NCBI GenBank assembly: GCA_902500205.1
Contig: GCA_902500205.1_4868.1
DNA from: Escherichia coli
Lineage (GTDB): Bacteria; Pseudomonadota; Gammaproteobacteria; Enterobacterales; Enterobacteriaceae
DNA length: 64,000 nt
Strand: one strand, 5' to 3'
The position numbers were made by a program, and so were the translations under genes. The number at the start of each line of letters is the position of its first letter. Positions within the stretch are counted from its first letter, which is position 1. This document shows positions 9,995 through 59,953 of this stretch, piece after piece. Below the pieces are notes generated by a model. It saw only the letters and a program-made list of their open reading frames with translations, did not search any database and was not told the origin of the DNA.

Positions 9995-10313
9995 GTTGGA
10001 AATTTCGAAAGAAGCGTGGAAAAGAAATCTTGATGAATCTTTCGAAGAACGCCGTAAGCTTACGCGATTACTTTCTGAGGAACAGTCTAAGAACCGGAAA
10101 CTCGAAGATGAGCTACGGGATGCCCGACGAGATGCGGATCTGCGTGACAAGATGTTAGGATGGAACCTGGGTGCCCTAATCTATTTCATAGAGCAACGTT
10201 GGGAACCAAAAACACTCCTTGAGTTGCTCTATGAAAAACTCTCCTGTGTAGGTAAACGTTCTGCGGCCATCGAGTATTTCCGTAGTCACGGTTTCGAGGT
10301 AAAAGATGAGTAA
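9912..10313 (+). CDS. coiled-coil protein
   Basis: ATG 9912 five nt after AAGGAGAAAAC; strongly charged heptad sequence (LELELSLSKTELEISKEAWKRNLDESFEERRKL). Confidence 0.5.
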   Translation: MFGLFQEKKQLRRQLEILELELSLSKTELEISKEAWKRNLDESFEERRKLTRLLSEEQSKNRKLEDELRDARRDADLRDKMLGWNLGALIYFIEQRWEPKTLLELLYEKLSCVGKRSAAIEYFRSHGFEVKDE

Positions 10314-24120: not shown

Positions 24121-25107
24121 ATGGCTTTTACAATTCGTTGGACGAACAATAACCCTGGGGCTTCGACCGTGAAGCTGTACCGCGACACCAAACCTCTGGT
24201 GCGTACGGCATTACCTGAACCTCTGGCAACGTTCACTAACGGGGAAACTGAGTATACTGACCGAACAGCGATACTGGGGACAACGTATTACTACATGACC
24301 ACTGTGACAGTGGGAAGCCGAACACTGTTCAGTCCGCAGAAATCAATTCTGATTCAGAACCGTCGCGGTATCGGCATCGTGACTCCACAGTACGGTGATG
24401 ACCGCTTTGCGTATTACGGGTATGTGGCGTACGGTGAATTGCCTAGCGCGGCTGATTATCCGCCAGGGTTTGTGGCCATTTCTGGATATGACCCAACTGT
24501 TAAGCCGGGCTTGATTAAGTTCCAGCTAGACGGTAAAATTCTGTATCTGTTTAGTGGTCTTCGTGTGAACGGCAACACGCTGTATAGCCGTGATGCGATT
24601 TATAACGCGGGTTTGCTGTACGGTGTGGAGGGACCTGGTCCGGAAGGCGGTCATGGTGATTTACCTGACGTTGACCAGGCTGGGGAGTTTACGTGGTTGG
24701 GTGACCGCTATCGGATGCGCCTGCTGCGCGGGTTAACGCTCGACAGTGAAAGCCCGGTCATGACACTCGACGCACAGTGGAACGGTAAACTCCATGACGC
24801 GTCACCGTATACTGCCGATAGCGAATACAACCGACTCATCTATGGGATAAGTAGCTGGTTCCCAGAAAAGAAAAAAGTGATGTCCCTGATAAAGTGGTCG
24901 AACACCAGCATATTCGGAAGTGGATCGCTGGTGGCAGGCCGTGGGGCGCATTGTCAGGAGTTTGACCCAGACAGTAAGTTGGGGCTGACGCGCGGATGGG
25001 CGGCGGCGGATTCCACTGATACCGTGGATAACCTCCAGCGTATACAACATGTCCCTGCGACCGTGGGCGGTATTTGGATTCCAGTAATCGAGCTTATCGA
25101 GGATTAA
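24121..25107 (+). CDS. cassette copy 2, gene b (328 aa)
   Basis: Paralog of 20667-21665. Confidence 0.65.
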   Translation: MAFTIRWTNNNPGASTVKLYRDTKPLVRTALPEPLATFTNGETEYTDRTAILGTTYYYMTTVTVGSRTLFSPQKSILIQNRRGIGIVTPQYGDDRFAYYGYVAYGELPSAADYPPGFVAISGYDPTVKPGLIKFQLDGKILYLFSGLRVNGNTLYSRDAIYNAGLLYGVEGPGPEGGHGDLPDVDQAGEFTWLGDRYRMRLLRGLTLDSESPVMTLDAQWNGKLHDASPYTADSEYNRLIYGISSWFPEKKKVMSLIKWSNTSIFGSGSLVAGRGAHCQEFDPDSKLGLTRGWAAADSTDTVDNLQRIQHVPATVGGIWIPVIELIED

Positions 25108-25109
25108 TC

Positions 25110-26009
25110 ATGCCTATTACATTAAACTTTGCACAACGGAAGCCACAGGCGCTCGATAACATTGAAATCTATCGCAAGACGCCGGGCAACGCCACCATTG
25201 ATGTTAATGCACCGGGAACGCCTCTGGCAACCCTTCCGGGTGACGCTACATCGTACGAAGACAACGCTGTGGAAAACAACACCACTTACCGTTATTGGAT
25301 AGCTGCGGTTAAAGACGGTGAGCGTGTCTTCAACACCCCTACCGCCCAAGGGTTCTTTTTAGACACCGGGCCTGGCCCCCAGAAACTGTTATACGGCGAC
25401 TGGCACGCCGGATACTTTGGAACAGTAACGCCAGCAGAGTTATTCACTAACGCGGAACTGAACAGCCTCGTGGTGAATATGTTCAGTTCCGCCGTTGGTG
25501 CCTGGCATAAGTTCATTTACAAAAACCGTATTCTGTTTATGTCCGATAACTCGATAATATACGCTAGCCCGCAGTTCATTTATAACCAGGGGCTGATGTA
25601 CGGCCAGGATGGCAACGGATATGTGCCGAGCTGGGCTAGTGCACGTAACCAACGCCGCACGGTGACGAAAAACGGTTACGAATACGTGGTGCGCTTGCCG
25701 TATTTGTTCGACTACAAATACTGGACGTCTTTCGTTGGAAGCGGTAACACCGAGTTGTATCTCGACGGTGAGTGGTTTAACACCTTCGCGCGCCTGTACA
25801 ACTACAGTGGGCAGTTTCCGCGCTTTGACGACATTCCGGTCGGTCCAATCGATTCGGTTACTGCCCAACAATCTGCATTCTTTGCGGCTATGAATAACTT
25901 GTCCGCTCAGTGGTACAACCGTCCACCCTACCCAGAGTCGCCGTCATGGGGTAACTACGGTACCGATACAATACGCTCTATTGCGGTACTTGAACTCGTT
26001 CTGCCTTAA
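25110..26009 (+). CDS. cassette copy 2, gene c (299 aa)
   Basis: ATG 25110 (MPITLNF..) chosen over the upstream in-frame start; paralog of 21675-22598. Confidence 0.6.
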   Translation: MPITLNFAQRKPQALDNIEIYRKTPGNATIDVNAPGTPLATLPGDATSYEDNAVENNTTYRYWIAAVKDGERVFNTPTAQGFFLDTGPGPQKLLYGDWHAGYFGTVTPAELFTNAELNSLVVNMFSSAVGAWHKFIYKNRILFMSDNSIIYASPQFIYNQGLMYGQDGNGYVPSWASARNQRRTVTKNGYEYVVRLPYLFDYKYWTSFVGSGNTELYLDGEWFNTFARLYNYSGQFPRFDDIPVGPIDSVTAQQSAFFAAMNNLSAQWYNRPPYPESPSWGNYGTDTIRSIAVLELVLP

Positions 26010-26029
26010 CAGGAGACTTCATGGGATTG

Positions 26030-26065
26030 TATAGCGCACTTTACCATAACAGCTAAAAATAGGCC
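26030..26065 (+). pseudogene. 11-codon remnant resembling a collapsed family-A gene (MGLYSALYHNS)
   Basis: AGGAG RBS plus ATGGGATTGTAT.. similar to the start of gene 22612 (ATGGGGTTGTATAC..); ending ..LYHNS resembles family C-termini (..YHYNS, ..LHYNN). Confidence 0.3.
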
Positions 26066-26088
26066 CTTCGGGGCCTATTTTCTTTTTT
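26056..26088 (+). terminator. intrinsic terminator (UUCG tetraloop)
   Basis: AATAGGCCC-TTCG-GGGCCTATT followed by TTCTTTTTT. Confidence 0.75.
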
Positions 26089-26099
26089 AGGACGTTGCA

Positions 26100-27419
26100 A
26101 TGATCAACTATAACAAACCTGTCATGCAACTGGTTTGGGATCAGATTAATCGTGATAACCCGCAGCTCAAGAAACCGCTCAACGCAACCAACGTGGCGTT
26201 ATTACAAGGTCCTTTAACCAATGCCTTGCGCGATGGTCGCAACAGCCGTATCGTGGTAAACGGATTACAGGGTGGTGGTTACAGCGGTAAGATGGACATC
26301 TACTACGACCGCTTAAACCTTTCGCAGTATTTTAAAGGCGTCAGCGTACCGGTTAAAGTACCTTATCGGGCGACGGTCTACCGCGACATCATCGATCGGA
26401 TTTCCGCAGCTTGTGGGTTGGTGCTTACTGCTGACGATTTAACGTATCCTGACAGCCAGTTTGCAATGATCACTGTGGCAACGGGCGATCGGACGGTGGC
26501 GATTAAATCGGATAACCCCGCATTCACGGGTTATATTCCTATTAGCTTTATTCGTGAAGAGCCCAGCTTTGCCGACTTGTACCACACCACCGAAACCGGA
26601 GCTTGGGAACCCATGGATGTTTACAGCACGGTCTATCGACTCGACTGGAGCATGTACACTCAACAGATAATCAATATCCCAATGGGTACCCCGCTGCGAC
26701 TAAACAGTAACTCGTACATGACCCAGTTCATCGCGGCGCTGTCGGCATGGTCGGGCATCCCGTTCACTATCGGTAATGCTGCTACTGATAACCCGTATGA
26801 CCTCTATGGGTATGTCGCTACACGCAATAACAACCCAGGCTTAGACCCTGATATGCGTGGGGAGTACAAATACTGCGTGAAGTTGACGCCACCTGAGGAT
26901 ATGGGTAATCTCCGCCGTCCGTTCTTCTTGCACTTTGGTCCGAAAAATAACGTGGCCTATTTGGCGCAGGAAGAGGACGTCGAGCGTTATGCGCGTTACA
27001 TGAGTTTCCGGGAAACCAGCCCAAATTCGATGAGCGTCACGTTGTATCAAAACGAGTACGTGTTGACTCGGGCAGAATCGCCTGAAACAGCGGATGATTT
27101 AACGGGTTCCCCGTATGGCACTCGATACTGTACCGGGAGTATTCGACGGCTGATGCAACACGCGTTTCCGACCGAAGAGATGTTCCAAGAAAGTATTGCT
27201 AACCGACGTCGGGTACTGTACCACACTGCTTACACCACCACGACATCAGCTATTACTTACCAGGGATTATACCGTAACGGATACCAATCCAAACAAATGA
27301 CGAGCCTCTACTCGAATTACTGTAACTATTTCATCTATTACGACCCAAGCAAAGGCGGCTATATGGTCTACAGTCCATATAGCAAAACCGCCCCGGTCCC
27401 TTGGTATCCACCGCTATAG
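26100..27419 (+). CDS. family-A N-terminal domain protein, 439 aa, C-terminal SKTAPVPW motif
   Basis: N-terminus MINYNKPVMQLVWDQINRDNPQL...DGRNSRIVV...IYYDRLNLSQYF; C-terminus YSPYSKTAPVPWYPPL related to next gene. Confidence 0.65.
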   Translation: MINYNKPVMQLVWDQINRDNPQLKKPLNATNVALLQGPLTNALRDGRNSRIVVNGLQGGGYSGKMDIYYDRLNLSQYFKGVSVPVKVPYRATVYRDIIDRISAACGLVLTADDLTYPDSQFAMITVATGDRTVAIKSDNPAFTGYIPISFIREEPSFADLYHTTETGAWEPMDVYSTVYRLDWSMYTQQIINIPMGTPLRLNSNSYMTQFIAALSAWSGIPFTIGNAATDNPYDLYGYVATRNNNPGLDPDMRGEYKYCVKLTPPEDMGNLRRPFFLHFGPKNNVAYLAQEEDVERYARYMSFRETSPNSMSVTLYQNEYVLTRAESPETADDLTGSPYGTRYCTGSIRRLMQHAFPTEEMFQESIANRRRVLYHTAYTTTTSAITYQGLYRNGYQSKQMTSLYSNYCNYFIYYDPSKGGYMVYSPYSKTAPVPWYPPL

Positions 27420-33793: not shown

Positions 33794-34335
33794 TCGTCCT
33801 CCTCAATCAGGCCAAGTTCTAACAACAAACCGAAGTCCAGCATCTGGAAGTCCTGATCGAGGTTACCGGCCCACAACAGAGAAATGTTGTGTTGCTCTTC
33901 TTCTTCCAACTGCGGGAGCAGGTGTTCTTCGAAGATTTGACGTTCTGTGTAATAAGCGTCAACCGGGTTATTGGAGCGTAAGTTACGAATACGCATCCGC
34001 GGGAATGACAAGCCCAATGCCACTAAACTTTCAGGACTGGCTTCATCAATAGAGTGACGTAGCAGTTCGATTTTGTGGCGTGGGTATGCAAGCAGTCGCT
34101 TCTCAAAGCCAGGGTTGCGCTTTTCGATTTCCGCGACAGACTCGTGTCCTTTCTCAACGCAGTAGACCGGGATCATCACATTCAGCCCGTATTTAATCAA
34201 CAGGCTTTGGATTTCATCAGTGAAGTCTTCCCCTGCCACAATTGCGTGCACATTGTACAGCTTGCTTTTGCGCAGGAAGCGATCGACCAAGTGCAGTTTA
34301 CGCTTCGTAAAATTGTGAATCAGTATTGACTTCAT
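33769..34335 (-). CDS. hypothetical protein (188 aa) in rSAM cluster
   Basis: Start set at internal ATG (MKSILIHNF..) to limit overlap with upstream rSAM gene; acidic C-terminus. Confidence 0.45.
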   Translation of the reverse strand: MKSILIHNFTKRKLHLVDRFLRKSKLYNVHAIVAGEDFTDEIQSLLIKYGLNVMIPVYCVEKGHESVAEIEKRNPGFEKRLLAYPRHKIELLRHSIDEASPESLVALGLSFPRMRIRNLRSNNPVDAYYTERQIFEEHLLPQLEEEEQHNISLLWAGNLDQDFQMLDFGLLLELGLIEEDECLLLTKA

Positions 34336-35626
34336 TCTGGGCTCCGTTTTGTAATTTTTCTGCTTCAGCACGTTGGCGTACACAACGTGAACAATAGCAC
34401 ATGGATTTATCATGCAAATCTGATGCGCGGGTCGTACCAGTTTTCTGATACCAATATTCCGCCGCCATCAGCTTCGCAGTAGTCCAACCACACTGACGAC
34501 GTTCGGCGTGATACGCTTTACGGTCTTCCAGTGTACCTTCACCGTTTTCGTACGATGCTGCTGCGCAGCTACCGCAACTGTGTTTCATCGGACACCCTAA
34601 ACAGGTTTCTGGGTAGTTGGTGTACTGCGTTTGAATCTCTTCTAACAGCTTACCACCGTCCAGGCTCACAAACTCACGACCGACCAGTTCTGCTACAGCA
34701 GAACGGGAAGTTACCGTGGACATGAAACGGTTACAACCGTAAATCTTGCGATCAAAGCCGAGACAGGTCATGTGCGTCAACGTACCGCAGTACGGTTTCA
34801 GGCGTTCTGGGTCGAGACGAACAGAGTCGTCATGTAAGAGTTTGTCACGCCAATCCGGGTCCCAAGTTGCCATAAAGTTCAGGCCATCCGGGATGATGTG
34901 TGTAATCGTGTTACGCGGGTTGGTGTGCAGACCCTTCTCAATCCAGTAGTCCATCACGTCCATCATCTGGTTCGCGATATCCAACGCCATATGGCGCGGC
35001 AGGATATCTTCGTACGTTACGTTACCAGAGATGGTACCACCGCCGGACATGTCAATTAACGATTTCATGCTGGCGGCATAGTGCGGCAATGTATCGATCG
35101 TAAACGTCGCCTTTACGCCCAGCTCAGCGATGCCAACGCTCTTCAGGTAATTGTAACCGCGTACCGCAGCTTCGTACGACCCTTCACGCGTCGTGGTAAA
35201 GATACGATATTTGTCATGGACTTCAGGTAAACCATCGATGGAGACCCCAATAGACAGTTTGTCTTTCCAGCGCTCGATAATTTCTTTGTTCAGCGGTCGG
35301 TCCAGAAGTGTACCGTTCGTGGAGATACTGAACATATACGGGCGATTGTGTTCTGCGCATAACTTCTCTGCGGTTTCAAAGGCCGCCAAAAGAAGTTTAG
35401 GCTGCATGAACGGCTCACCACCGATGATATCGATGATGACTTCAACGTTCGGGATATCTTTATCGCGCTCGAAACAAGCGTGGATAAAATCAATCACGTC
35501 TGCTACTTTGTTGTTACGCGGATATTTACGCTCGTAGCAGTATTCGCAGTCCAGGTTACATGACAAGTTAGTCACAACCTGATACGTGCGTGGTGTGTAC
35601 TGGATTTGCTGTTCGCTATTACTCAT
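34298..35626 (-). CDS. radical SAM enzyme with SPASM-like C-terminal Cys cluster (putative peptide-modifying maturase)
   Basis: CNLDCEYC (CX3CX2C) near N-terminus, GGEP motif, and C-terminal CLGCPMKHSCGSC (Cx2Cx5Cx2C) plus further Cys, as in SPASM/twitch auxiliary cluster domains. Confidence 0.75.
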   Translation of the reverse strand: MSNSEQQIQYTPRTYQVVTNLSCNLDCEYCYERKYPRNNKVADVIDFIHACFERDKDIPNVEVIIDIIGGEPFMQPKLLLAAFETAEKLCAEHNRPYMFSISTNGTLLDRPLNKEIIERWKDKLSIGVSIDGLPEVHDKYRIFTTTREGSYEAAVRGYNYLKSVGIAELGVKATFTIDTLPHYAASMKSLIDMSGGGTISGNVTYEDILPRHMALDIANQMMDVMDYWIEKGLHTNPRNTITHIIPDGLNFMATWDPDWRDKLLHDDSVRLDPERLKPYCGTLTHMTCLGFDRKIYGCNRFMSTVTSRSAVAELVGREFVSLDGGKLLEEIQTQYTNYPETCLGCPMKHSCGSCAAASYENGEGTLEDRKAYHAERRQCGWTTAKLMAAEYWYQKTGTTRASDLHDKSMCYCSRCVRQRAEAEKLQNGAQNEVNTDSQFYEA

Positions 35627-36533
35627 TGTTCGCCGCCCGTTTACGCTTAGCAGAAATTACACGGTTGATGTAGTTATACGCATCAACGCCGATAGAACGC
35701 GCCAGGCGATTACAGCCGACTTCCAATATCTCTGGCGCGTTCTGAATTTGCTCCTGCGTACCGTCGGCGTTAAGCCACAGCACTTCACTGCACGTGTTGC
35801 ACTCGGTATCGAACATTTTACTGATCGCAAGCCCACATTCAGAATCGTTCTGCATGTTAAGGCGTTCGATATTGTCGAGTATTTTCCAATACCCGTACAT
35901 GAAGTTCATGACGTGGTCTGGCGATAACGGTTTCGGCATCATCGCATCAAACAGCAACGACATACCACCTGGACGGTAATGATAGATTGCTCGGTGCAGC
36001 TCGATGAAATCTTCGTACCAGCGTTTATCGCCTAACTGGTCACGCGTCATCACACCCCAGGTGTAATAGTTGTCCAGCTCGTACAGCACTTCCAGCGCTT
36101 CGTGATTACCACCGTTTACAAAGTTCATAAACGGACGTTCCGACTTCTTGTAGCCGTCAATGGACACAAAGATAAGGTCGAACTGTTTCAGCAACGGCAG
36201 ATGTGATTTACGCATCTTTAAACCGTTGGTGTACATGTGATGACGGAGGTTCGGATGAGACTCCTTCAACTCATTCACGAAGTCTTCAATCTTGCGCTGC
36301 GCTAACAGCGGCTCACCGCCCGTCCAATGAATCTCACCGATATCCGGATTCTTCTCTAAAATCGAGAGAATCTCTTCACGTTGAAACTCACGAGAAGTAT
36401 CTTCTCTATCCATGTAATAAGCCCCTCCACAGAAGCTACAGTCTAAGTTACACTTAGAAGTTGCGACAACCGACAGAATTGACGGTTTGTCGTACAGTTC
36501 AGACGAGATCCTGGATTCTACTTGATCTGTCAT
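35619..36533 (-). CDS. radical SAM enzyme (second, 304 aa)
   Basis: CNLDCSFC (CX3CX2C) and WTGGEPLL motifs; ATG 36533 (MTDQ..) after GGAG; C-terminal region has additional Cys (ECNTCSE). Confidence 0.7.
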   Translation of the reverse strand: MTDQVESRISSELYDKPSILSVVATSKCNLDCSFCGGAYYMDREDTSREFQREEILSILEKNPDIGEIHWTGGEPLLAQRKIEDFVNELKESHPNLRHHMYTNGLKMRKSHLPLLKQFDLIFVSIDGYKKSERPFMNFVNGGNHEALEVLYELDNYYTWGVMTRDQLGDKRWYEDFIELHRAIYHYRPGGMSLLFDAMMPKPLSPDHVMNFMYGYWKILDNIERLNMQNDSECGLAISKMFDTECNTCSEVLWLNADGTQEQIQNAPEILEVGCNRLARSIGVDAYNYINRVISAKRKRAANNE

Positions 36534-37465: not shown

Positions 37466-37672
37466 TTATCGATTCCCCGCTCCACGGCTACAGCTTCCGC
37501 TGCAGGACCAGCTACACCCACCATTACAGTTATAGTGAGAAAGCGGTAAGCCAGCCAGGTTATTTGTGGTCGACACGGTGCCCTGGTTAGCGATATAGTT
37601 GTTTGCCTGTGCGGTTGTAATGTAACCTTCTGCCGTAACGAGACGGTTTCGAATAGTCTTGAGACTGATCAC
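37466..37672 (-). CDS. leader + Cys-rich core small protein 3 (68 aa)
   Basis: GTG start 5 nt after GGAGG; N-terminus MISLKTIRNRL.. parallels the two larger paralogs; core HYNCNGGCSWSCSGSCS. Confidence 0.55.
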   Translation of the reverse strand: MISLKTIRNRLVTAEGYITTAQANNYIANQGTVSTTNNLAGLPLSHYNCNGGCSWSCSGSCSRGAGNR

Positions 37673-37687
37673 ATAAGCCTCCGTCGG

Positions 37688-38092
37688 TTAGGAGTTAGGA
37701 CCTGAACAACCACCAGAGCACGCACCTGAGCAGTTTGCGGAGCAGGATTTACCACAACCCCCAGAACAGCTGCCTGTGCACGTGCCGCTACAACCACCAG
37801 AGCACGAAGAGCTACAGCCCGTGCAGCTGCTGCTACAGCCTGATACACAGTTTGCCGAACAAGTCGACCCACAACCGCCCGTAGCAGACCCAGTACATCC
37901 GCCAGAACAACTCGAGCAACTAAAAGAGCATGTGCCACCACAGTCATAGTGCGAACGGCCTTGACCTGCGAACAAGTCGGCGTTATTCGTAGCTTTATTG
38001 CGAATGTAGTTTTGCACATTCGTGGTGTTCTTTAAAGCGTTTGCATCGATCGCGTTTAATCGGTTATTCAGTTCTTTTAATCCAATTGCCAT
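37688..38092 (-). CDS. leader + Cys/Gly/Ser-rich core protein 2 (134 aa)
   Basis: N-terminal ~48 aa conserved with neighbours (MAIGLKELNNRLNAIDAN..); C-terminal ~85 aa is C-(S/T)-G-x-C repeats with about 20 Cys. Confidence 0.65.
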   Translation of the reverse strand: MAIGLKELNNRLNAIDANALKNTTNVQNYIRNKATNNADLFAGQGRSHYDCGGTCSFSCSSCSGGCTGSATGGCGSTCSANCVSGCSSSCTGCSSSCSGGCSGTCTGSCSGGCGKSCSANCSGACSGGCSGPNS

Positions 38093-38102
38093 TTAATCCC
38101 CC

Positions 38103-38495
38103 TTAGCGACCTGAACAGCCACCGGAGCAGGCTCCGGAACAACTGGAAGAACATGAGCCACCGCAACCACCTGTGCAGTTACCGGTACAGCTACTACTGC
38201 AACCACCAGAACAACCAGAGCAACCAGAACAGTTACCGCCACACGTCGAAGAACAGCTACCGATACAAGAAGCAGAACAGCTTCCTGAACAGCTCGAACA
38301 GCCATGCGAGCAACCGTTAGAGCACGTCCAAGAACATGTCCCGCCGCAATCTAGCTGTGTTTTCGTCCAACCCCCAAATCGGTCTGCCGCGTTATGGGCT
38401 TTAGAGGCCACTTGCGCGTCGATACGGGGGCCTGTCGCCATGTTAGCTTCGACTATCTGGACGCGGTTTCTGACGTCTTTAATAGATATCGCCAT
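38103..38495 (-). CDS. leader + Cys/Gly/Ser-rich core protein 1 (130 aa)
   Basis: ATG after AAGGAAG; MAISIKDVRNRVQIVEAN.. leader-like region, then DCGGTCSWTCSNGCSHGCSSCSGSC.. core. Confidence 0.65.
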   Translation of the reverse strand: MAISIKDVRNRVQIVEANMATGPRIDAQVASKAHNAADRFGGWTKTQLDCGGTCSWTCSNGCSHGCSSCSGSCSASCIGSCSSTCGGNCSGCSGCSGGCSSSCTGNCTGGCGGSCSSSCSGACSGGCSGR

Positions 38496-53013: not shown

Positions 53014-54276
53014 GTGACTACTGCTTATCAAGTGCGGGCCGACAGCGCTTTTGGCTTCTCTCGAGACACCCGAACTTGGGGAACCATCGATGTCACGCAG
53101 CCCTTAAATACCCTTTGTGCTAACTACCACTTTTTCGAAGTAGGACTAGAAGCACTAGGTGCTGAATATACCTTCTATAGCCAGTATCACCTGGCTGATT
53201 TACAAAACCGTACGGACACGTTGCAAGATTGGTTAAACACCAAGTCAGGAATCGCGATTCCAACGCTTGGGAAGGGCCTACCGAAGCTCGAATTCGTTGA
53301 GGCACATTACCAGTCTATTAATGCAGATGTGCCCGTAGAAACGCACCTGTGCCCTCCTGGGTACCATTACACTCAGGACTTCAATCCCGATGATGCACAC
53401 GACGTTGTTGTAGTCTGCGACGATGAGTGGAAAGAGAAATACCGTACTGGGGTGCTGTACAACATCAACGGCCAGTGGGTACCTCACCAATCTGACCCAG
53501 TGGGCGTTCGCTTAACCGGCGCTGGTAATATCGTGCGGCGTGCCAATACACCTGACATCGGCTGTCTGGTGATGGCAAACATCGGTAAAGTAAAGACCTA
53601 CCCCATATCCGGTTTAACGATGAACAAACTCGATACTACGCGAGATTACTATTCTTCGTTAATGTTGACCTTACCCGATTCCATTACAGGGAAAACCGTT
53701 GGGTTCGTCATCGGAGGTATTCTGCATTGGTTGCCGCCGCAGGGCTATTTCAGCGACCGTGCGATTATGCTGAGTCTGCCAAACCTTAGCGTGGCGAAGA
53801 TTGTATTGGAAACCCGTCGCTATTACGATTGGGACGCCATCGGTGTAGGTGATTTAAGTACGCCTACGTCCGTTCAACGTATTCGTAACTCAGAAACGTT
53901 AAAAGCGTTGCTGACGCACGAATCCTCGTTTATCTTTACGATAGACAACCCGTATCTCGAAAAAGAGATTCACGGAATAAGCCACAACGCTATCTGGGGC
54001 CGGTTCTATTTAAAAGACCCAACTGACCCAGATGGGAAGAAAACGCTAGGTCCTATCTTTAACCGTATTGGTAAATGTGTAGGGTACTGGCCGACCTGGG
54101 AAGAAGGGGAGTGGGTCTTTAATACCACATTCTTCGACCGGGAAAACTTTTTGTTGGGGAACGCGCGTTGGTATAACCAGAATTTGGTAAACGACGCGCA
54201 GGCAATCGTCGGGCCTTTCGGGGCTTGGGGTAAGCCATTTGTTGAAATGCATCGCTACAAAGCACGAAAAAAATAA
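53014..54276 (+). CDS. hypothetical protein (420 aa)
   Basis: GTG start after AGAGGAAACAGCCA; divergent from the minus-strand fibre operon. Confidence 0.55.
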   Translation: MTTAYQVRADSAFGFSRDTRTWGTIDVTQPLNTLCANYHFFEVGLEALGAEYTFYSQYHLADLQNRTDTLQDWLNTKSGIAIPTLGKGLPKLEFVEAHYQSINADVPVETHLCPPGYHYTQDFNPDDAHDVVVVCDDEWKEKYRTGVLYNINGQWVPHQSDPVGVRLTGAGNIVRRANTPDIGCLVMANIGKVKTYPISGLTMNKLDTTRDYYSSLMLTLPDSITGKTVGFVIGGILHWLPPQGYFSDRAIMLSLPNLSVAKIVLETRRYYDWDAIGVGDLSTPTSVQRIRNSETLKALLTHESSFIFTIDNPYLEKEIHGISHNAIWGRFYLKDPTDPDGKKTLGPIFNRIGKCVGYWPTWEEGEWVFNTTFFDRENFLLGNARWYNQNLVNDAQAIVGPFGAWGKPFVEMHRYKARKK

Positions 54277-54282
54277 AAGGTA

Positions 54283-54326
54283 AACCCTACTCCCAACGGG
54301 AGTAGGGTACCTATATCTTTTTTTGC
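54283..54326. terminator. bidirectional intrinsic terminator
   Basis: CCCTACTCCC-AAC-GGGAGTAGGG with A-run upstream and T-run (TCTTTTTTTG) downstream. Confidence 0.7.
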
Positions 54327-54337
54327 CTGCAGGCCGA

Positions 54338-54547
54338 TTACGCGTTTACGTAATAGATGGCGTTGCCGAACATTTTGTTGTTGCCGCCACAAGCGGTAAC
54401 TTTAAATGCTACGCCGCCTTCAGCTTCGGCTTTCTTAGCCAGCGCTTCGGTAACTTCGGTAACGGTGCTCAGTCCAGAAACCTGAACGGTGCCTGCTTCT
54501 ACCAGACCAGAAACGTCGCTGCCTGCGGTGATTTCACGAATGCTCAT
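54338..54547 (-). CDS. DUF1471 (YhcN/BhsA family)-like small protein lacking a signal peptide
   Basis: C-terminal SGLSTVTEVTEALAKKAEAEGGVAFKVTACGGNNKMFGNAIYYV matches the DUF1471 domain pattern of enterobacterial stress proteins; RBS GGAGA. Confidence 0.5.
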   Translation of the reverse strand: MSIREITAGSDVSGLVEAGTVQVSGLSTVTEVTEALAKKAEAEGGVAFKVTACGGNNKMFGNAIYYVNA

Positions 54548-54641
54548 TTACTTATCTCCATTAACAAATGATAGCAGAAGAACCCTATGTTCAACTACTT
54601 GTACTTCGAGGCATATTAACTGCCCCGACTCGTAAATTAGT

Positions 54642-54728
54642 TGACAATAAACCGGCTTTTGTGCGAAAAAAGTGGCTAACTGTGCACAAGCGATTCGGGT
54701 TATCGTTACAGTTAGGGGTTTATTGTCA
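54642..54728. repeat. 12-bp perfect inverted repeat pair TGACAATAAACC / GGTTTATTGTCA separated by 63 bp
   Basis: Read directly from sequence at 54642-54653 and 54717-54728, in the leader region upstream of the minus-strand DUF1471-like gene; minus-strand TATAAT-like hexamer overlaps at 54731-54736. Confidence 0.5.
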
Positions 54729-54754
54729 CATTATACCCCACACACGTAAATAAC

Positions 54755-55687
54755 TTAGTGCGGTGTACTGGTGTCGTTGCCCGGACCATGGCCAGTATGT
54801 ACGTGAAGAGTAAAGGTGATGCCGCCGATAACCGATTCGGTAACTGTGAATGTGCCCTTACCTTCACCCTTGCCGTTATAGAGGAAATCTTTACCTACTT
54901 CCAGGTTACCGGTAAATAGATTCGTTGGACAATCGGTCTTCCAGTCTTCAGTCGTCCATGCCATGTTTTTCGACGCTGTAGAGTTGCGAGTTTCGCACTT
55001 CTCGTTAATCGTCTTTGTCTCGAGATTAATAGAACGTTTAGCATAAATGAAAGCGTCCTCTTTATTGATATTAATCTTCGACCGGCAGGCGTTTTCAAAC
55101 CCTAAATCATCCTCTGGAGAGTTGAGGTAGAACTTACGCCCTTCGTCATCCACCAACTGGCAAAACCCGTCACGGGTATTCAGCTGGAGCAGATACGCGT
55201 TTTTCTCACCGTTAGTCATACTGGTACGTAAAGTAACGTGACCATCCATCGGGGAGATATTCAGTACGTAGGCGTTAGAGAGGTCATCGGCCATCTGGTT
55301 TACTGGGTCAGCAGACCAGGCGTATACCCCATCTTCCAGTCGCTTAACGTTACTATTGTTTAAATCTTCCCAGAAGTACATATCGGTTTCACCGATACGC
55401 CAGATTCTTACGTAGTCTTCTTTTTTCACATCCGGAGGGTTAACCCGGTTGCTGTTGGACTTCATCCATTTTGCAGTGATGGCATTACCTTGCTTTACAG
55501 TAAGGTTGTCAGTACCACTTAAACTGTTGTGTTGCTTCTCTACAGGTGTCTCTGTTGCATCGACAGCTGTTGGATTAATAAAGTTAACTTCGATAGGGAT
55601 GACTTTAACTCGAGTGGCACCACGAGGTTTATCTTCCGCGACGATACCTATCGAGAAGATGTGCAACCCTGACTTAGATTTATTCAT
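54755..55687 (-). CDS. hypothetical protein (310 aa)
   Basis: ATG 6 nt after GGAGG on minus strand. Confidence 0.55.
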   Translation of the reverse strand: MNKSKSGLHIFSIGIVAEDKPRGATRVKVIPIEVNFINPTAVDATETPVEKQHNSLSGTDNLTVKQGNAITAKWMKSNSNRVNPPDVKKEDYVRIWRIGETDMYFWEDLNNSNVKRLEDGVYAWSADPVNQMADDLSNAYVLNISPMDGHVTLRTSMTNGEKNAYLLQLNTRDGFCQLVDDEGRKFYLNSPEDDLGFENACRSKININKEDAFIYAKRSINLETKTINEKCETRNSTASKNMAWTTEDWKTDCPTNLFTGNLEVGKDFLYNGKGEGKGTFTVTESVIGGITFTLHVHTGHGPGNDTSTPH

Positions 55688-55867
55688 ACCACCCTCCTCT
55701 CATACTACACTTTTTTACGTTTCGATCTCATCGTTTGACAATCGAGGAAAGTACGGGGGTAAGGGGGTTTATGTATTGGATGCGAACATAAACGGAGGTA
55801 TCCGTAGGATACCGACATCCTTTTTGTAGTTGACCTTGACTTCTAACCTAACGAGGAGTGCAGTACC

Positions 55868-56185
55868 ATGTCTTTATTTCAAACCATTAAAAGTGCATTA
55901 GAGCGTAATGATGCAGACAGTGCCTTTACTGCGTTACAGAAAGCCAGTAACGGGAAGCTAGACAGCGTCTTTGCTAACAATCAAAGAATGCGCTTTTACA
56001 AAGTCGGGGAAGTAGACCAGTTCTACGACGAACTGTTTACGGGAGTAGTGCAAAGCGCGGTATACGCCATACCGACTGAACAATTAAGTCAGTTTGAAAA
56101 AGGGATGCGTTACCAGCGGTTAAGTAACGACTACTCATTACTGAATCTGGCTATCGATGACTGCATCGTACTGGTTGTATACTAA
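55868..56185 (+). CDS. hypothetical protein (105 aa)
   Basis: ATG after GAGGAG. Confidence 0.5.
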   Translation: MSLFQTIKSALERNDADSAFTALQKASNGKLDSVFANNQRMRFYKVGEVDQFYDELFTGVVQSAVYAIPTEQLSQFEKGMRYQRLSNDYSLLNLAIDDCIVLVVY

Positions 56186-56187
56186 GT

Positions 56188-56217
56188 TTTTACAGATAGA
56201 TGTCATCTTAGTGAGCA
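56188..56217 (+). promoter_or_regulatory. conserved intergenic motif, copy D (TTTACAGATAGATGTCATCTTAGTGAGC)
   Basis: Related to copies C and E; followed by TGTGTATAAAC (extended -10-like) and a small hairpin before gene 56306. Confidence 0.35.
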
Positions 56218-56305
56218 TTGTGTATAAACCCACAGTCGCTTAAACACCAACTGTTCTTTAGTAACAGTTTTTGGTCACTTTAGTGTACTTTAAAGGAAAT
56301 ACCAA

Positions 56306-57544
56306 ATGTATAACGAATACGAATTAGTTTACCAGACACCGAAAGAAGCATTCTTTAATGCAGTAATTACTAACTCAATTGTACTGTTGGGAATGCAGTT
56401 CAATATTCGGAGTATGGCTTACAGCGACGTAACGTGGCAGGATTGTGCGTGCCTGCCACAAAAGCTCTCAACCGTTGTCGAAAAGCGGCTGCTTGACAAA
56501 GGGGAAGTAAAGTGCCGTTTAGGCCACCACGTCTCTGACTTAGCGCCGTGGGTTGAATTAACCATGACATTCGAAGGGGATACGCGGGTAGCTTACCTAT
56601 CGGGTAATCAAAACATCGGACGCGCCATTGCTGAGGGTAACACAATGTGGGTGCACTACATTCTTACTCTGCTGATCGATAAACCGGTGTTCGAGTTAAC
56701 ACCAGACATGCCTACACTAAGCGATAGCAACTGGTGGACTGGCGGAGAGCTGAATACAGGGTTTAATGAGAAATTACAAAACTTTAATTCAGAGCGGCTT
56801 GATGTTGATGCGGAAGTGTTGGTGCAGCAGTTCCCCGAATTCACTGCGTACCAAATTACTACCGTATGGAATAGAGCGGTAAGCAAGCGCAGATTCTACA
56901 CGAAAAACGCACCGCGTGAAGCAGCCAAACCTGTGGAAATTGACGAAGAGACCAAGGAAGCACTGCGTGATCTAGTCACCATAGCCAATGATAGCAATAT
57001 GATGTTCTGGACATCTGATGAAAACGCTAACCATTATTTCGGTGAGATGTTAGACGCCGATGTTTGGTCAGTAATGCCGATAACAGAGCCAGGAAACCTT
57101 AAAGATTACTATAAGGTCGAAAAGGATGAGGTGGTTAATGAGAAAGTCCTCACTCTTCTTGCTGTTTTCCGCGAAGTTATCCAGTCAGAAATACTGTTAA
57201 GCATCTATAAACGCAAGACCCCGGCCAGTGAAAATGACACGGCGTGGGTATTTGACTGCCGACCGACAAATACAATATCGCCTGCGTTCTGGATACAGGT
57301 GACAGGAAAGCTGCAGCGTGTGAACAGTTATGTTGTTTCTCGCCTGCCAGATTCTGAAATGCGCTCCGTTGCCGAACCTGCTTATTTGATGTCGGCGAAG
57401 GCGGTACGGGATGCGTGGGGTACCAACGAACTGAAACAATGGCATTACGACGCTATCATCAAATGGGGTGTTAACAATGGCTGGAAAGAAGTGACTAAGT
57501 ACGGCCGTCAACTGTTGTTTGTCGCTGATTTGCGTTTACTGTAA
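56306..57544 (+). CDS. hypothetical protein (412 aa)
   Basis: ATG after AAAGGAAATACCAA. Confidence 0.6.
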   Translation: MYNEYELVYQTPKEAFFNAVITNSIVLLGMQFNIRSMAYSDVTWQDCACLPQKLSTVVEKRLLDKGEVKCRLGHHVSDLAPWVELTMTFEGDTRVAYLSGNQNIGRAIAEGNTMWVHYILTLLIDKPVFELTPDMPTLSDSNWWTGGELNTGFNEKLQNFNSERLDVDAEVLVQQFPEFTAYQITTVWNRAVSKRRFYTKNAPREAAKPVEIDEETKEALRDLVTIANDSNMMFWTSDENANHYFGEMLDADVWSVMPITEPGNLKDYYKVEKDEVVNEKVLTLLAVFREVIQSEILLSIYKRKTPASENDTAWVFDCRPTNTISPAFWIQVTGKLQRVNSYVVSRLPDSEMRSVAEPAYLMSAKAVRDAWGTNELKQWHYDAIIKWGVNNGWKEVTKYGRQLLFVADLRLL

Positions 57545-59365: not shown

Positions 59366-59953
59366 ATGACAGAACGTATTTTACGACTGCAAGAGAACAG
59401 GTTAGAAGACCTGCACGTAATGCGTAGTCGTGGCTTGTTTCCGGTGGGGCTTGATGTGAGTGGATTATTAACTGCCGCAGAGCACGGGGACAAGGTCATT
59501 ACAATGCATTCACGTGGGAACGAAGTGGTCTCTGCGATTTTCATCGATAAGGTTATTCCGGACTCGGAAAGTGGTAAGGTGGCGGGACACATCATTTACG
59601 AATACTTTCGCAGCATTCTATACGAGGAAAAGATAAATGTCAAAACTTTTATGGAGTACGCTAAGCGAAATAACTACATCGATGCGCGACTGATGGTCAC
59701 GGAAGGCACCCCAACTATAAACGGTAAAGTCCACCATCGTTTACTTGGAGCACAGTTGCCGAGACTAGGCGAGATACCAACGACGATAGAGCTGCACCAA
59801 AAAACAGATTGGCGACACAAAATCGAAGTGCTTCACAAGCTTTACGATTTATCGATCGTTCAAATCAAACTGGTGGACTTTACGCCTGCAAATATGCAAA
59901 TCGCTAAGCGCGCGTTGGGTTTTCGTATTCTTAACACAACCTTCACATTGTAA
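59366..59953 (+). CDS. hypothetical protein (195 aa)
   Basis: ATG 59366 after GAGGTG that lies inside a conserved CTCAAA..TTTGAG hairpin. Confidence 0.5.
   Translation: MTERILRLQENRLEDLHVMRSRGLFPVGLDVSGLLTAAEHGDKVITMHSRGNEVVSAIFIDKVIPDSESGKVAGHIIYEYFRSILYEEKINVKTFMEYAKRNNYIDARLMVTEGTPTINGKVHHRLLGAQLPRLGEIPTTIELHQKTDWRHKIEVLHKLYDLSIVQIKLVDFTPANMQIAKRALGFRILNTTFTL

Follow-up and report, generated by a model that had tools for sequence, protein, structure and literature searches.

A perfect inverted repeat upstream of a DUF1471-like gene in an SPN3US-like jumbo phage as the probable closing helix of a conserved structured RNA

Introduction

What could be the role of a perfect inverted repeat between two genes of a jumbo phage? 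The stretch of DNA analysed here (64,000 nt in total, called the window in the following) carries the 12-mer TGACAATAAACC at 54642-54653 of the plus strand and, 63 nt apart from it, the exact reverse complement at 54717-54728. Both copies are situated in the 207-nt intergenic gap 54548-54754, which separates two genes of the minus strand. An earlier note on this DNA described the repeat and its spacer correctly and left two alternatives for its function, namely operator half-sites for a repressor that loops the DNA or the base of a long RNA stem. The second alternative was supported by our analysis and the first was not. With a probability of roughly 65%, we regard the repeat as the terminal (closing) helix of a conserved structured RNA that is encoded on the minus strand.

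The repeat and its genomic setting

Taken alone, the repeat is a modest feature. By direct reading it can be extended neither inward nor outward. The window contains six perfect inverted repeats of at least 12 bp with spacers of 3-150 nt compared to 0.54 expected from Markov-2 shuffles; one such repeat in 64 kb is not rare by chance and by itself not compelling. Other perfect repeats (12-14 bp, spacers 15-134 nt) are found at positions 10184-10236, 25452-25492, 35694-35743 and 59724-59883, at least two of them inside coding regions, and the short-loop repeats at 26056, 31845, 54284 and 59292 resemble ordinary terminators.

The 551 bp around the repeat share 99.3% identity with SPN3US, and judged from its sequence the window represents an SPN3US-like jumbo Salmonella phage (Seoulvirus). 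Near the repeat, subtraction of 105,725 from the SPN3US position gives the window position. The window phage differs from SPN3US itself: only 57% of the sampled 30-mers are identical, approximately 3.46 kb of SPN3US are missing (window ~25100-26200; SPN3US ~127.4-131.9 kb, an array of virion-protein paralogues), and further smaller indels occur elsewhere in the window before 36600. In the 240,413-bp SPN3US genome the 12-mer is present in exactly two copies, which correspond to both arms, and the single match with one mismatch elsewhere is at the estimated chance level. The earlier note had named frequent occurrence of the 12-mer throughout the genome as the observation that would speak against a special role; the opposite was found. 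Since the 12-mer is restricted to the two arms, it does not represent a dispersed operator.

The earlier placement of the repeat upstream of a minus-strand DUF1471-like gene could be verified by a Pfam match (Table 1). The Pfam domain of this protein, gp172, begins at residue 16, so that an N-terminal signal peptide would not fit; bacterial members of the DUF1471 family usually possess a signal peptide. The numbering of gp172 and its upstream neighbour gp173 was deduced from the neighbouring fibre proteins of 188, 149 and 135 kDa, which were matched to the published masses of gp168-170 (PMC5694885). Orthologues of gp172 are found in synteny beside baseplate genes in several jumbo-phage genera (loci L002-L005, L008-L016 and L033-L036 of our collection).

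Table 1. Features around the inverted repeat (window coordinates; promoters and RNA parts are predictions).
Feature	Position	Strand	Remarks
gp173, upstream gene	54755..55687	-	baseplate assembly protein
Predicted promoter P1	54727..54750	-	TTTAC (54750..54746), 15-nt spacer including TATAAT, TGTG (54730..54727)
5' arm	54717..54728	-	5' strand of H1, UGACAAUAAACC on the RNA; bases 2-12 correspond to nt +1..+11 if transcription starts as predicted for P1
H2 inner helix, 5' strand	54708..54715	-	CUAACUGU
H2 inner helix, 3' strand	54676..54683	-	ACAGUUAG; ACGGUUAG in Lh1B, MET_P1 and Proteus phage 7, giving a U·G pair
Core	54663..54676	-	GCCACUUUUUUCGC, near-invariant, mostly single-stranded in the fold
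H4 small hairpin	54656..54672	-	CUUUU, loop UUCGCAC, AAAAG
3' arm	54642..54653	-	3' strand of H1, GGUUUAUUGUCA; nt +75..+86 of the P1 transcript; ends 5 nt before TTTAC of P2
Predicted promoter P2	54612..54636	-	TTTAC, 16-nt spacer, TATG; starts 5 nt past the 3' arm
gp172, downstream gene	54338..54547	-	69-aa YdgH/BhsA/McbA-like (DUF1471) protein; Pfam PF07338, E 3e-11
Intrinsic terminator	54284..54308	-	after gp172; the sole canonical one downstream of P1/P2 (scan of 53800-56400, this strand)

Phage-type promoters on both sides of the repeat

Phages of the phiKZ type use their own RNA polymerases for transcription, and according to a review the middle and late promoters of such phages are not predictable bioinformatically (PMC7598289). 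In phiKZ itself, a TAC motif near -22 has been reported for middle promoters (PMC8244752) and T-3ATG+1 for late promoters, and the nvRNAP strictly needs TATG in vitro (PMC7598289). Inspection of the upstream regions of all SPN3US genes revealed two recurrent motifs, the phiKZ-like early motif TTTCAGATATATATTACCTAGGTGA and a second one, TTTAC(G/A)-N15-T(A/G)TG, which often directly follows the T-run of a terminator. TTTAC-N15-T[AG]TG is strongly enriched in non-coding DNA: it matches the SPN3US genome 26 times, and 19 of these matches are located in the non-coding 6.4% of the genome, most of them 24-99 nt upstream of a start codon on the same strand. With a spacing of 12, 14 or 20 nt, the motif has no non-coding match in the SPN3US genome. 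Regarding gene classes, it mainly precedes non-structural SPN3US genes, often after terminators, and inspection by eye indicates that the structural genes are apparently preceded by AGTATGA-like sites instead.

Two sites of this kind, P1 and P2, flank the repeat. If a phiKZ-type promoter is described as a TAC-containing AT-rich box near -22 together with T-A-T-G at -3..+1 (PMC7598289, PMC8244752), P1 (TTTAC-N15-TGTG, with the TGTG variant) and P2 (TTTAC-N16-TATG) both agree with it. The TTTAC box of P1 begins 4 nt past the stop codon of gp173. By analogy to T-3ATG+1 of phiKZ (PMC7598289), P1 is predicted to start transcription within the 5' arm, at its second base (G 54727), and the predicted start of P2, at 54612, precedes the ATG of gp172 by 65 nt. 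The resulting positions of TTTAC (-23..-19) and T(A/G)TG (-3..+1) resemble the middle and late promoters of phiKZ, and SPN3US likewise encodes both phiKZ-type multisubunit RNA polymerase sets (PMC7598289). However, the two elements represent separate classes in phiKZ, whereas SPN3US joins them at a fixed spacing of 15 nt. Moreover, SPN3US tolerates TGTG as far as motif matches indicate, and it must be mentioned as a point against our interpretation that P1 hereby departs from the TATG required by the phiKZ nvRNAP in vitro (PMC7598289).

All lineages that carry the element described below have kept P1, namely Seoulvirus, Machinavirus, Wellingtonvirus, phiEaH2-like and metagenomic lineages, and its end reads T[AG]T[AG] with AC or GC behind it in each of them. 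P2 is conserved in pEa_SNUABM_29 (pEa29), SPAsTU, Caitlin, pEa9, Machina, Kwan and the phiEaH2-like loci L008/L013. Among the SPN3US-like phages, the P1 spacer is the most variable stretch (substitutions at 4 of 15 positions). We also considered that 5'-terminal helices might be a general trait of this promoter class, which was rejected: among the 19 predicted transcripts only that of P1 combines a long 5'-terminal helix with the lack of an ORF within 100 nt.

For the same bases, the earlier note had pointed to two hexamers that imply host-type promoter elements, a minus-strand TATAAT-like one overlapping the right copy of the repeat and a plus-strand TTGACA overlapping the left copy. The position of TTGACA (54641-54646) is as described; TATAAT (54735..54730) lies upstream of the right arm, stops 1 nt short of it and does not overlap it. 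Both hexamers match the sigma-70 consensus perfectly, and one could imagine divergent host promoters, with TATAAT directing transcription of gp172, TTGACA that of an antisense RNA and the repeat being a by-product. However, neither hexamer has a partner, and a scan of 53800-56400 for -35 and -10 hexamers spaced by 16-18 nt with at least 9 of 12 matches found no site in the intergenic region. TATAAT is part of the variable 15-nt spacer of P1 and is not conserved in relatives, where the position reads TATATT (5 of 7 SPN3US-like phages) or, in other genera, GATAAT, GATAGT or GGTATA. Furthermore, phiKZ-like phages transcribe independently of the host RNA polymerase (PMC7598289), and the phage-type motifs explain the same bases. 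Both hexamers are incidental, the repeat is probably not a host-type promoter, and a pair of divergent sigma-70 promoters at this place is extremely improbable.

Folding of the predicted transcript

The 88 nt from the predicted P1 start fold into a three-way junction with an MFE of -23.5 kcal/mol, which is more stable than can be explained by composition (z -4.66; none of 200 shuffles was as stable). The closing helix H1, 11 bp beginning at nt +1, is retained when 208 nt reaching into gp172 are folded. The core GCCACUUUUUUCGC is unique in the SPN3US genome and is found 54-65 nt from the predicted transcription start in the lineages measured. The small hairpin H4 appears as CUAUUU/AAAUAG in Caitlin and as CUUUUUU/AAAAAAG in pEa9, L008 and Kwan; pEa29, Machina and the L009 group lack it.

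The plus strand gives an almost equally good fold (z -4.25); hence, the assignment of the strand rests on the promoters and on G·U pairs. Such pairs occur in SPAsTU as G1·U, in H2 of pEa29 and L008, and in the variant form of H2 that MET_P1, Lh1B and Proteus phage 7 share. On the plus strand they would be A·C mismatches, which together with the orientation of the promoters points to the minus strand as the RNA; a plus-strand transcript was rejected on this basis.

The element belongs to no curated RNA family: Rfam gave no match with E <= 1 in seven related loci, and the matches of the window were at chance level, far below the gathering scores. Small ORFs were considered as well, a 32-aa ORF with TTG start (54591-54689) and a 61-aa ORF of the plus strand, and were rejected, since their frames are not conserved and a ribosome-binding site is lacking. 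By direct reading, window and pEa29 have different frames over the core, so that no conserved ORF runs across the element.

Two further observations concern the leader of gp172. Its 5' UTR contains a hairpin at 54580-54592 of the minus strand, GAAC-AUAGG-GUUC, which reads AGAC-AUAGG-GUCU in pEa29, SPAsTU and L008 and AGAC-AUGGG-GUCU in CR5. With a conserved loop and compensatory changes in the stem, it is a second candidate RNA element approximately 20 nt past the predicted P2 start. In addition, the outer half of the 3' arm and its flank (UAUUGUCAACUAAUU, 54635-54649) can engage AAGUAGUUGAACAUA of the gp172 leader (54586-54600) in another pairing, with 12 of 15 positions matched. This pairing overlaps the conserved UTR hairpin and could be an alternative conformer or a coincidence.

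Conservation and covariation in related phages

The order of baseplate gene, long spacer and DUF1471 gene is kept in Erwinia, Salmonella and uncultured relatives, which were drawn from phage records, IMG/VR and metagenomes. When pEa_SNUABM_29, SPAsTU and the phiEaH2-like L008/L013 were folded independently (MFE), they gave the same topology as the window. In these folds, the outermost 5' nucleotides find their partners immediately 3' of the U-run region, as GACAAC/GUUGUC in pEa_SNUABM_29, GACAACA/UGUUGUU in SPAsTU and GCAACAU/AUGUUGC in L008/L013 (p of the complementarity against shuffles 0.13, 0.013 and 0.03 for pEa29, SPAsTU and L008, respectively). The proposed base of a long RNA stem is thereby supported: the arms close an independently folding domain, and their pairing is kept with different sequences in these relatives.

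Plain MAFFT misplaced the 3' arms and was replaced by an N-padded alignment. In this structure alignment 89% of the cells are paired, compared to 29-44% when the partners are slid, and both sides have changed in 5 of 22 pairs; these counts are biased toward the structure by the hand-guided alignment, and only approximately four independent lineages share the topology. The covariation score is 0.262 versus 0.149, and 0 of 500 shuffles reach the observed value. In H1, columns 6-97 switch between UA and CG and columns 8-95 between AU and UA; in H2, three to four types of pair occur at columns 18-59 and 19-58. Compensatory changes and G·U pairs, as expected for a structured RNA, were thus found on the basis of approximately four independent lineages and a hand-guided alignment. 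The outer ~6-8 bp of H1 are conserved and the inner 3-4 bp are found in the SPN3US group alone; the perfect 12 bp of the window can therefore be seen as the extended form of a conserved terminal helix of 6-8 bp. L008 has apparently lost one whole base pair of H1.

Not all relatives fit equally well. In Caitlin, pEa9, Machina, Kwan and the L009 group, P1 and the core are kept, and the 5' end seems to be paired differently or weakly, which in the case of Machinavirus, Kwan and the L009 group counts against the terminal helix. Furthermore, the most conserved part, GCCACUUUUUUCGC, is kept as sequence rather than as structure. In the Derbicusvirus phages CR5 and EarlPhillipIV the core is absent. 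The covariance model R1, for which three near-identical SPN3US-type sequences were used and which is hence too narrow, found one copy in the SPN3US genome, SPAsTU at E 1.6e-7 and pEa29 weakly, and did not recover the phiEaH2-like and Machinavirus elements. An exact-pattern scan of viral contigs for the core at fixed spacing returned SPN3US alone, as the relatives differ by indels. A host origin of the leader was discarded, since 5,426 E. coli genomes contained nothing similar.

The relatives also differ in what follows the element. A canonical terminator, i.e. hairpin plus U-tract, lies between element and P2 in L008, pEa29, Kwan and Caitlin (L008, L002, L034 and L003), and such a terminator is absent in the window and SPAsTU. 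In the Erwinia phage Kwan, an additional annotated ORF of 159 nt (gp192; L034 2436-2594) is inserted between the baseplate gene and P1 plus element; it is therefore P1 and the DUF1471 gene, and not the stop codon of the baseplate gene, that the element accompanies.

Alternative explanations

The repeat could also be a chance product without own function in a conserved intergenic region, in which the two promoters and the GCCACTTTTTTCGC core would be the real signals. The expectation of 0.54 such repeats per window fits this, as do the TGAC within the 5' arm, which is constrained by P1 anyway, and the inner 3-4 bp, which are not conserved beyond the SPN3US group. However, three further lineages show, with compensatory changes, that the first 6-9 nt of the predicted transcript are complementary to the segment which follows the U-run hairpin directly on its 3' side, in a homologous position, the z score of the element is low, and both arms are invariant in all 7 aligned SPN3US-like phages while nearby positions of the promoter spacer vary. 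Hence, we consider chance unlikely. A pair of operators, at which a dimeric or tetrameric phage regulator binds both arms, loops the DNA and controls P1 and P2, would be in line with the location of the perfect arms, which overlap or abut both predicted promoters: the P1 start is inside one arm and the -23 box of P2 is 5 bp from the other. The centres of the arms are 75 bp apart, arithmetically about seven helical turns, and would thus face the same side of the helix; SPN3US encodes at least one annotated HTH protein, and a symmetric binding site would also show symmetric co-variation of its arms. But the 240-kb genome contains no further copy of the 12-mer and only the chance-level match with one mismatch, and in pEa29, SPAsTU and L008 it is the complementarity and not the sequence of the arms that is conserved. 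Moreover, G·U pairs and the shortening by one pair in L008 are meaningful for an RNA and not for a protein site, and H2 co-varies likewise, for which a two-site operator gives no explanation. The repeat is therefore probably not a repressor operator, and the looping-repressor half-sites of the earlier note are very unlikely.

The third function that one might assign to the region is that of a terminator or insulator of the gp173 operon, in which the large hairpin, or H2 with CCAC-UUUUUU, stops the phage RNA polymerase before gp172. In most lineages a stem adjoins GCCAC-U6 at a fixed distance from P1, and U6 is nearly invariant. However, an intrinsic terminator consists of a GC-rich stem with a short loop and a U-tract 0-2 nt from the stem, and the element looks different: the 3' arm is followed by ACUAAUUUAC and no U-tract, and H2 is AU-rich with a loop of 24 nt, and 4 nt (CCAC) lie between this helix and the U-run. 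Consistently, the terminator scan made no call at 54548-54754. In relatives with the extra canonical terminator downstream, such a function would be redundant, and a stop at U6 would leave the 3' arm untranscribed and its conserved pairing unexplained. A terminator function is thus highly improbable.

Possible function and significance

Given the structured RNA on the minus strand as our preferred reading, a scenario can be outlined. Transcription from P1 would start at the second base of the 5' arm, and the first 11 nt of the transcript would pair with nt 75-85, which closes a three-way junction of ~85 nt (H1, H2 with apical loop, and H4) that would present the near-invariant GCCACUUUUUUCGC. 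Since no terminator follows the element in SPN3US-type phages, the domain would there form the 5'-terminal part of a leader of 180 nt, carried by a long gp172 mRNA isoform. Transcripts from P1 and read-through transcripts from gp173 would, in phages of the window/SPAsTU type, enter gp172 and stop at 54308..54284; the read-through RNA would contain the element as well, in its 3' part. In the sister genera, the terminator after the element would release it as a small RNA of ~120-180 nt. The fully paired 5' end would be expected to protect against 5'-end-dependent decay of the RNA, and the U-rich motif on display may be the working site, at which a protein such as Hfq binds or base-pairing takes place. 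We are much less confident about these specific functions than about the structured RNA as such.

Most likely, the element is a previously undescribed RNA of a familiar kind, either a phage leader or a small RNA. With respect to RNase E and RppH, a paired nt +1 without unpaired 5' nucleotides blocks 5'-end-dependent decay. As in stabiliser stem-loops of the ompA 5' UTR type, the predicted helix begins at nt +1 without unpaired 5' nucleotides; in contrast to them, it closes a large three-way junction instead of a simple hairpin, and the leader has a second predicted promoter downstream. Type I 3'UTR-derived sRNAs such as MicL and DapZ have their own promoter and share the terminator with the upstream mRNA. 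Reminiscent of these sRNAs and of the Hfq-type sRNA architecture, pEa29, phiEaH2-like, Machinavirus and Kwan phages show the order of stop codon, predicted promoter, predicted structured RNA with a conserved single-stranded U-rich segment, and intrinsic terminator. However, the window phage lacks the terminator. The terminator of several relatives suggests a discrete small RNA. More tentatively, P1 and the element could represent an independent small-RNA gene that is conserved across the SPN3US-like chimalliviruses (Seoulvirus, Machinavirus, Wellingtonvirus, phiEaH2-like and uncultured relatives), has its own terminator in most genera and uses the single-stranded GCCACUUUUUUCGC as working site; we regard this as possible, although the odds are against it.

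If true, such a conserved family of regulatory sRNAs would be the first in nucleus-forming jumbo phages; it would possibly act on host or phage mRNAs or bind Hfq or a phage protein. To our knowledge, regulation at the RNA level is almost unexplored in these phages. For phiKZ, only one sRNA has been predicted, without confirmation (PMC8244752). The locus offers a candidate structured RNA with its own predicted promoter that is conserved over several genera, and a promoter motif with fixed spacing, TTTAC-N15-TRTG, which is open to 5'-end mapping. SPN3US is a genetically tractable model phage.

Another locus of the window deserves mention. At 37466-38495 of the minus strand, three tandem paralogous small ORFs encode 68, 134 and 130 aa, of which the SPN3US RefSeq record annotates one. 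They share a leader-like N-terminus, MAI[SG][IL]K..NR.., and long repeats rich in Cys, Gly and Ser (CSGGCSG...), and are preceded by TTTAC-N15-TATG (predicted start at SPN3US 144258). Two radical-SAM genes are located just downstream on the same strand (SPN3US 140024-142139, approximately window 34300-36415). Together, these ORFs and the radical-SAM genes look like a RiPP-precursor cassette in a jumbo phage.
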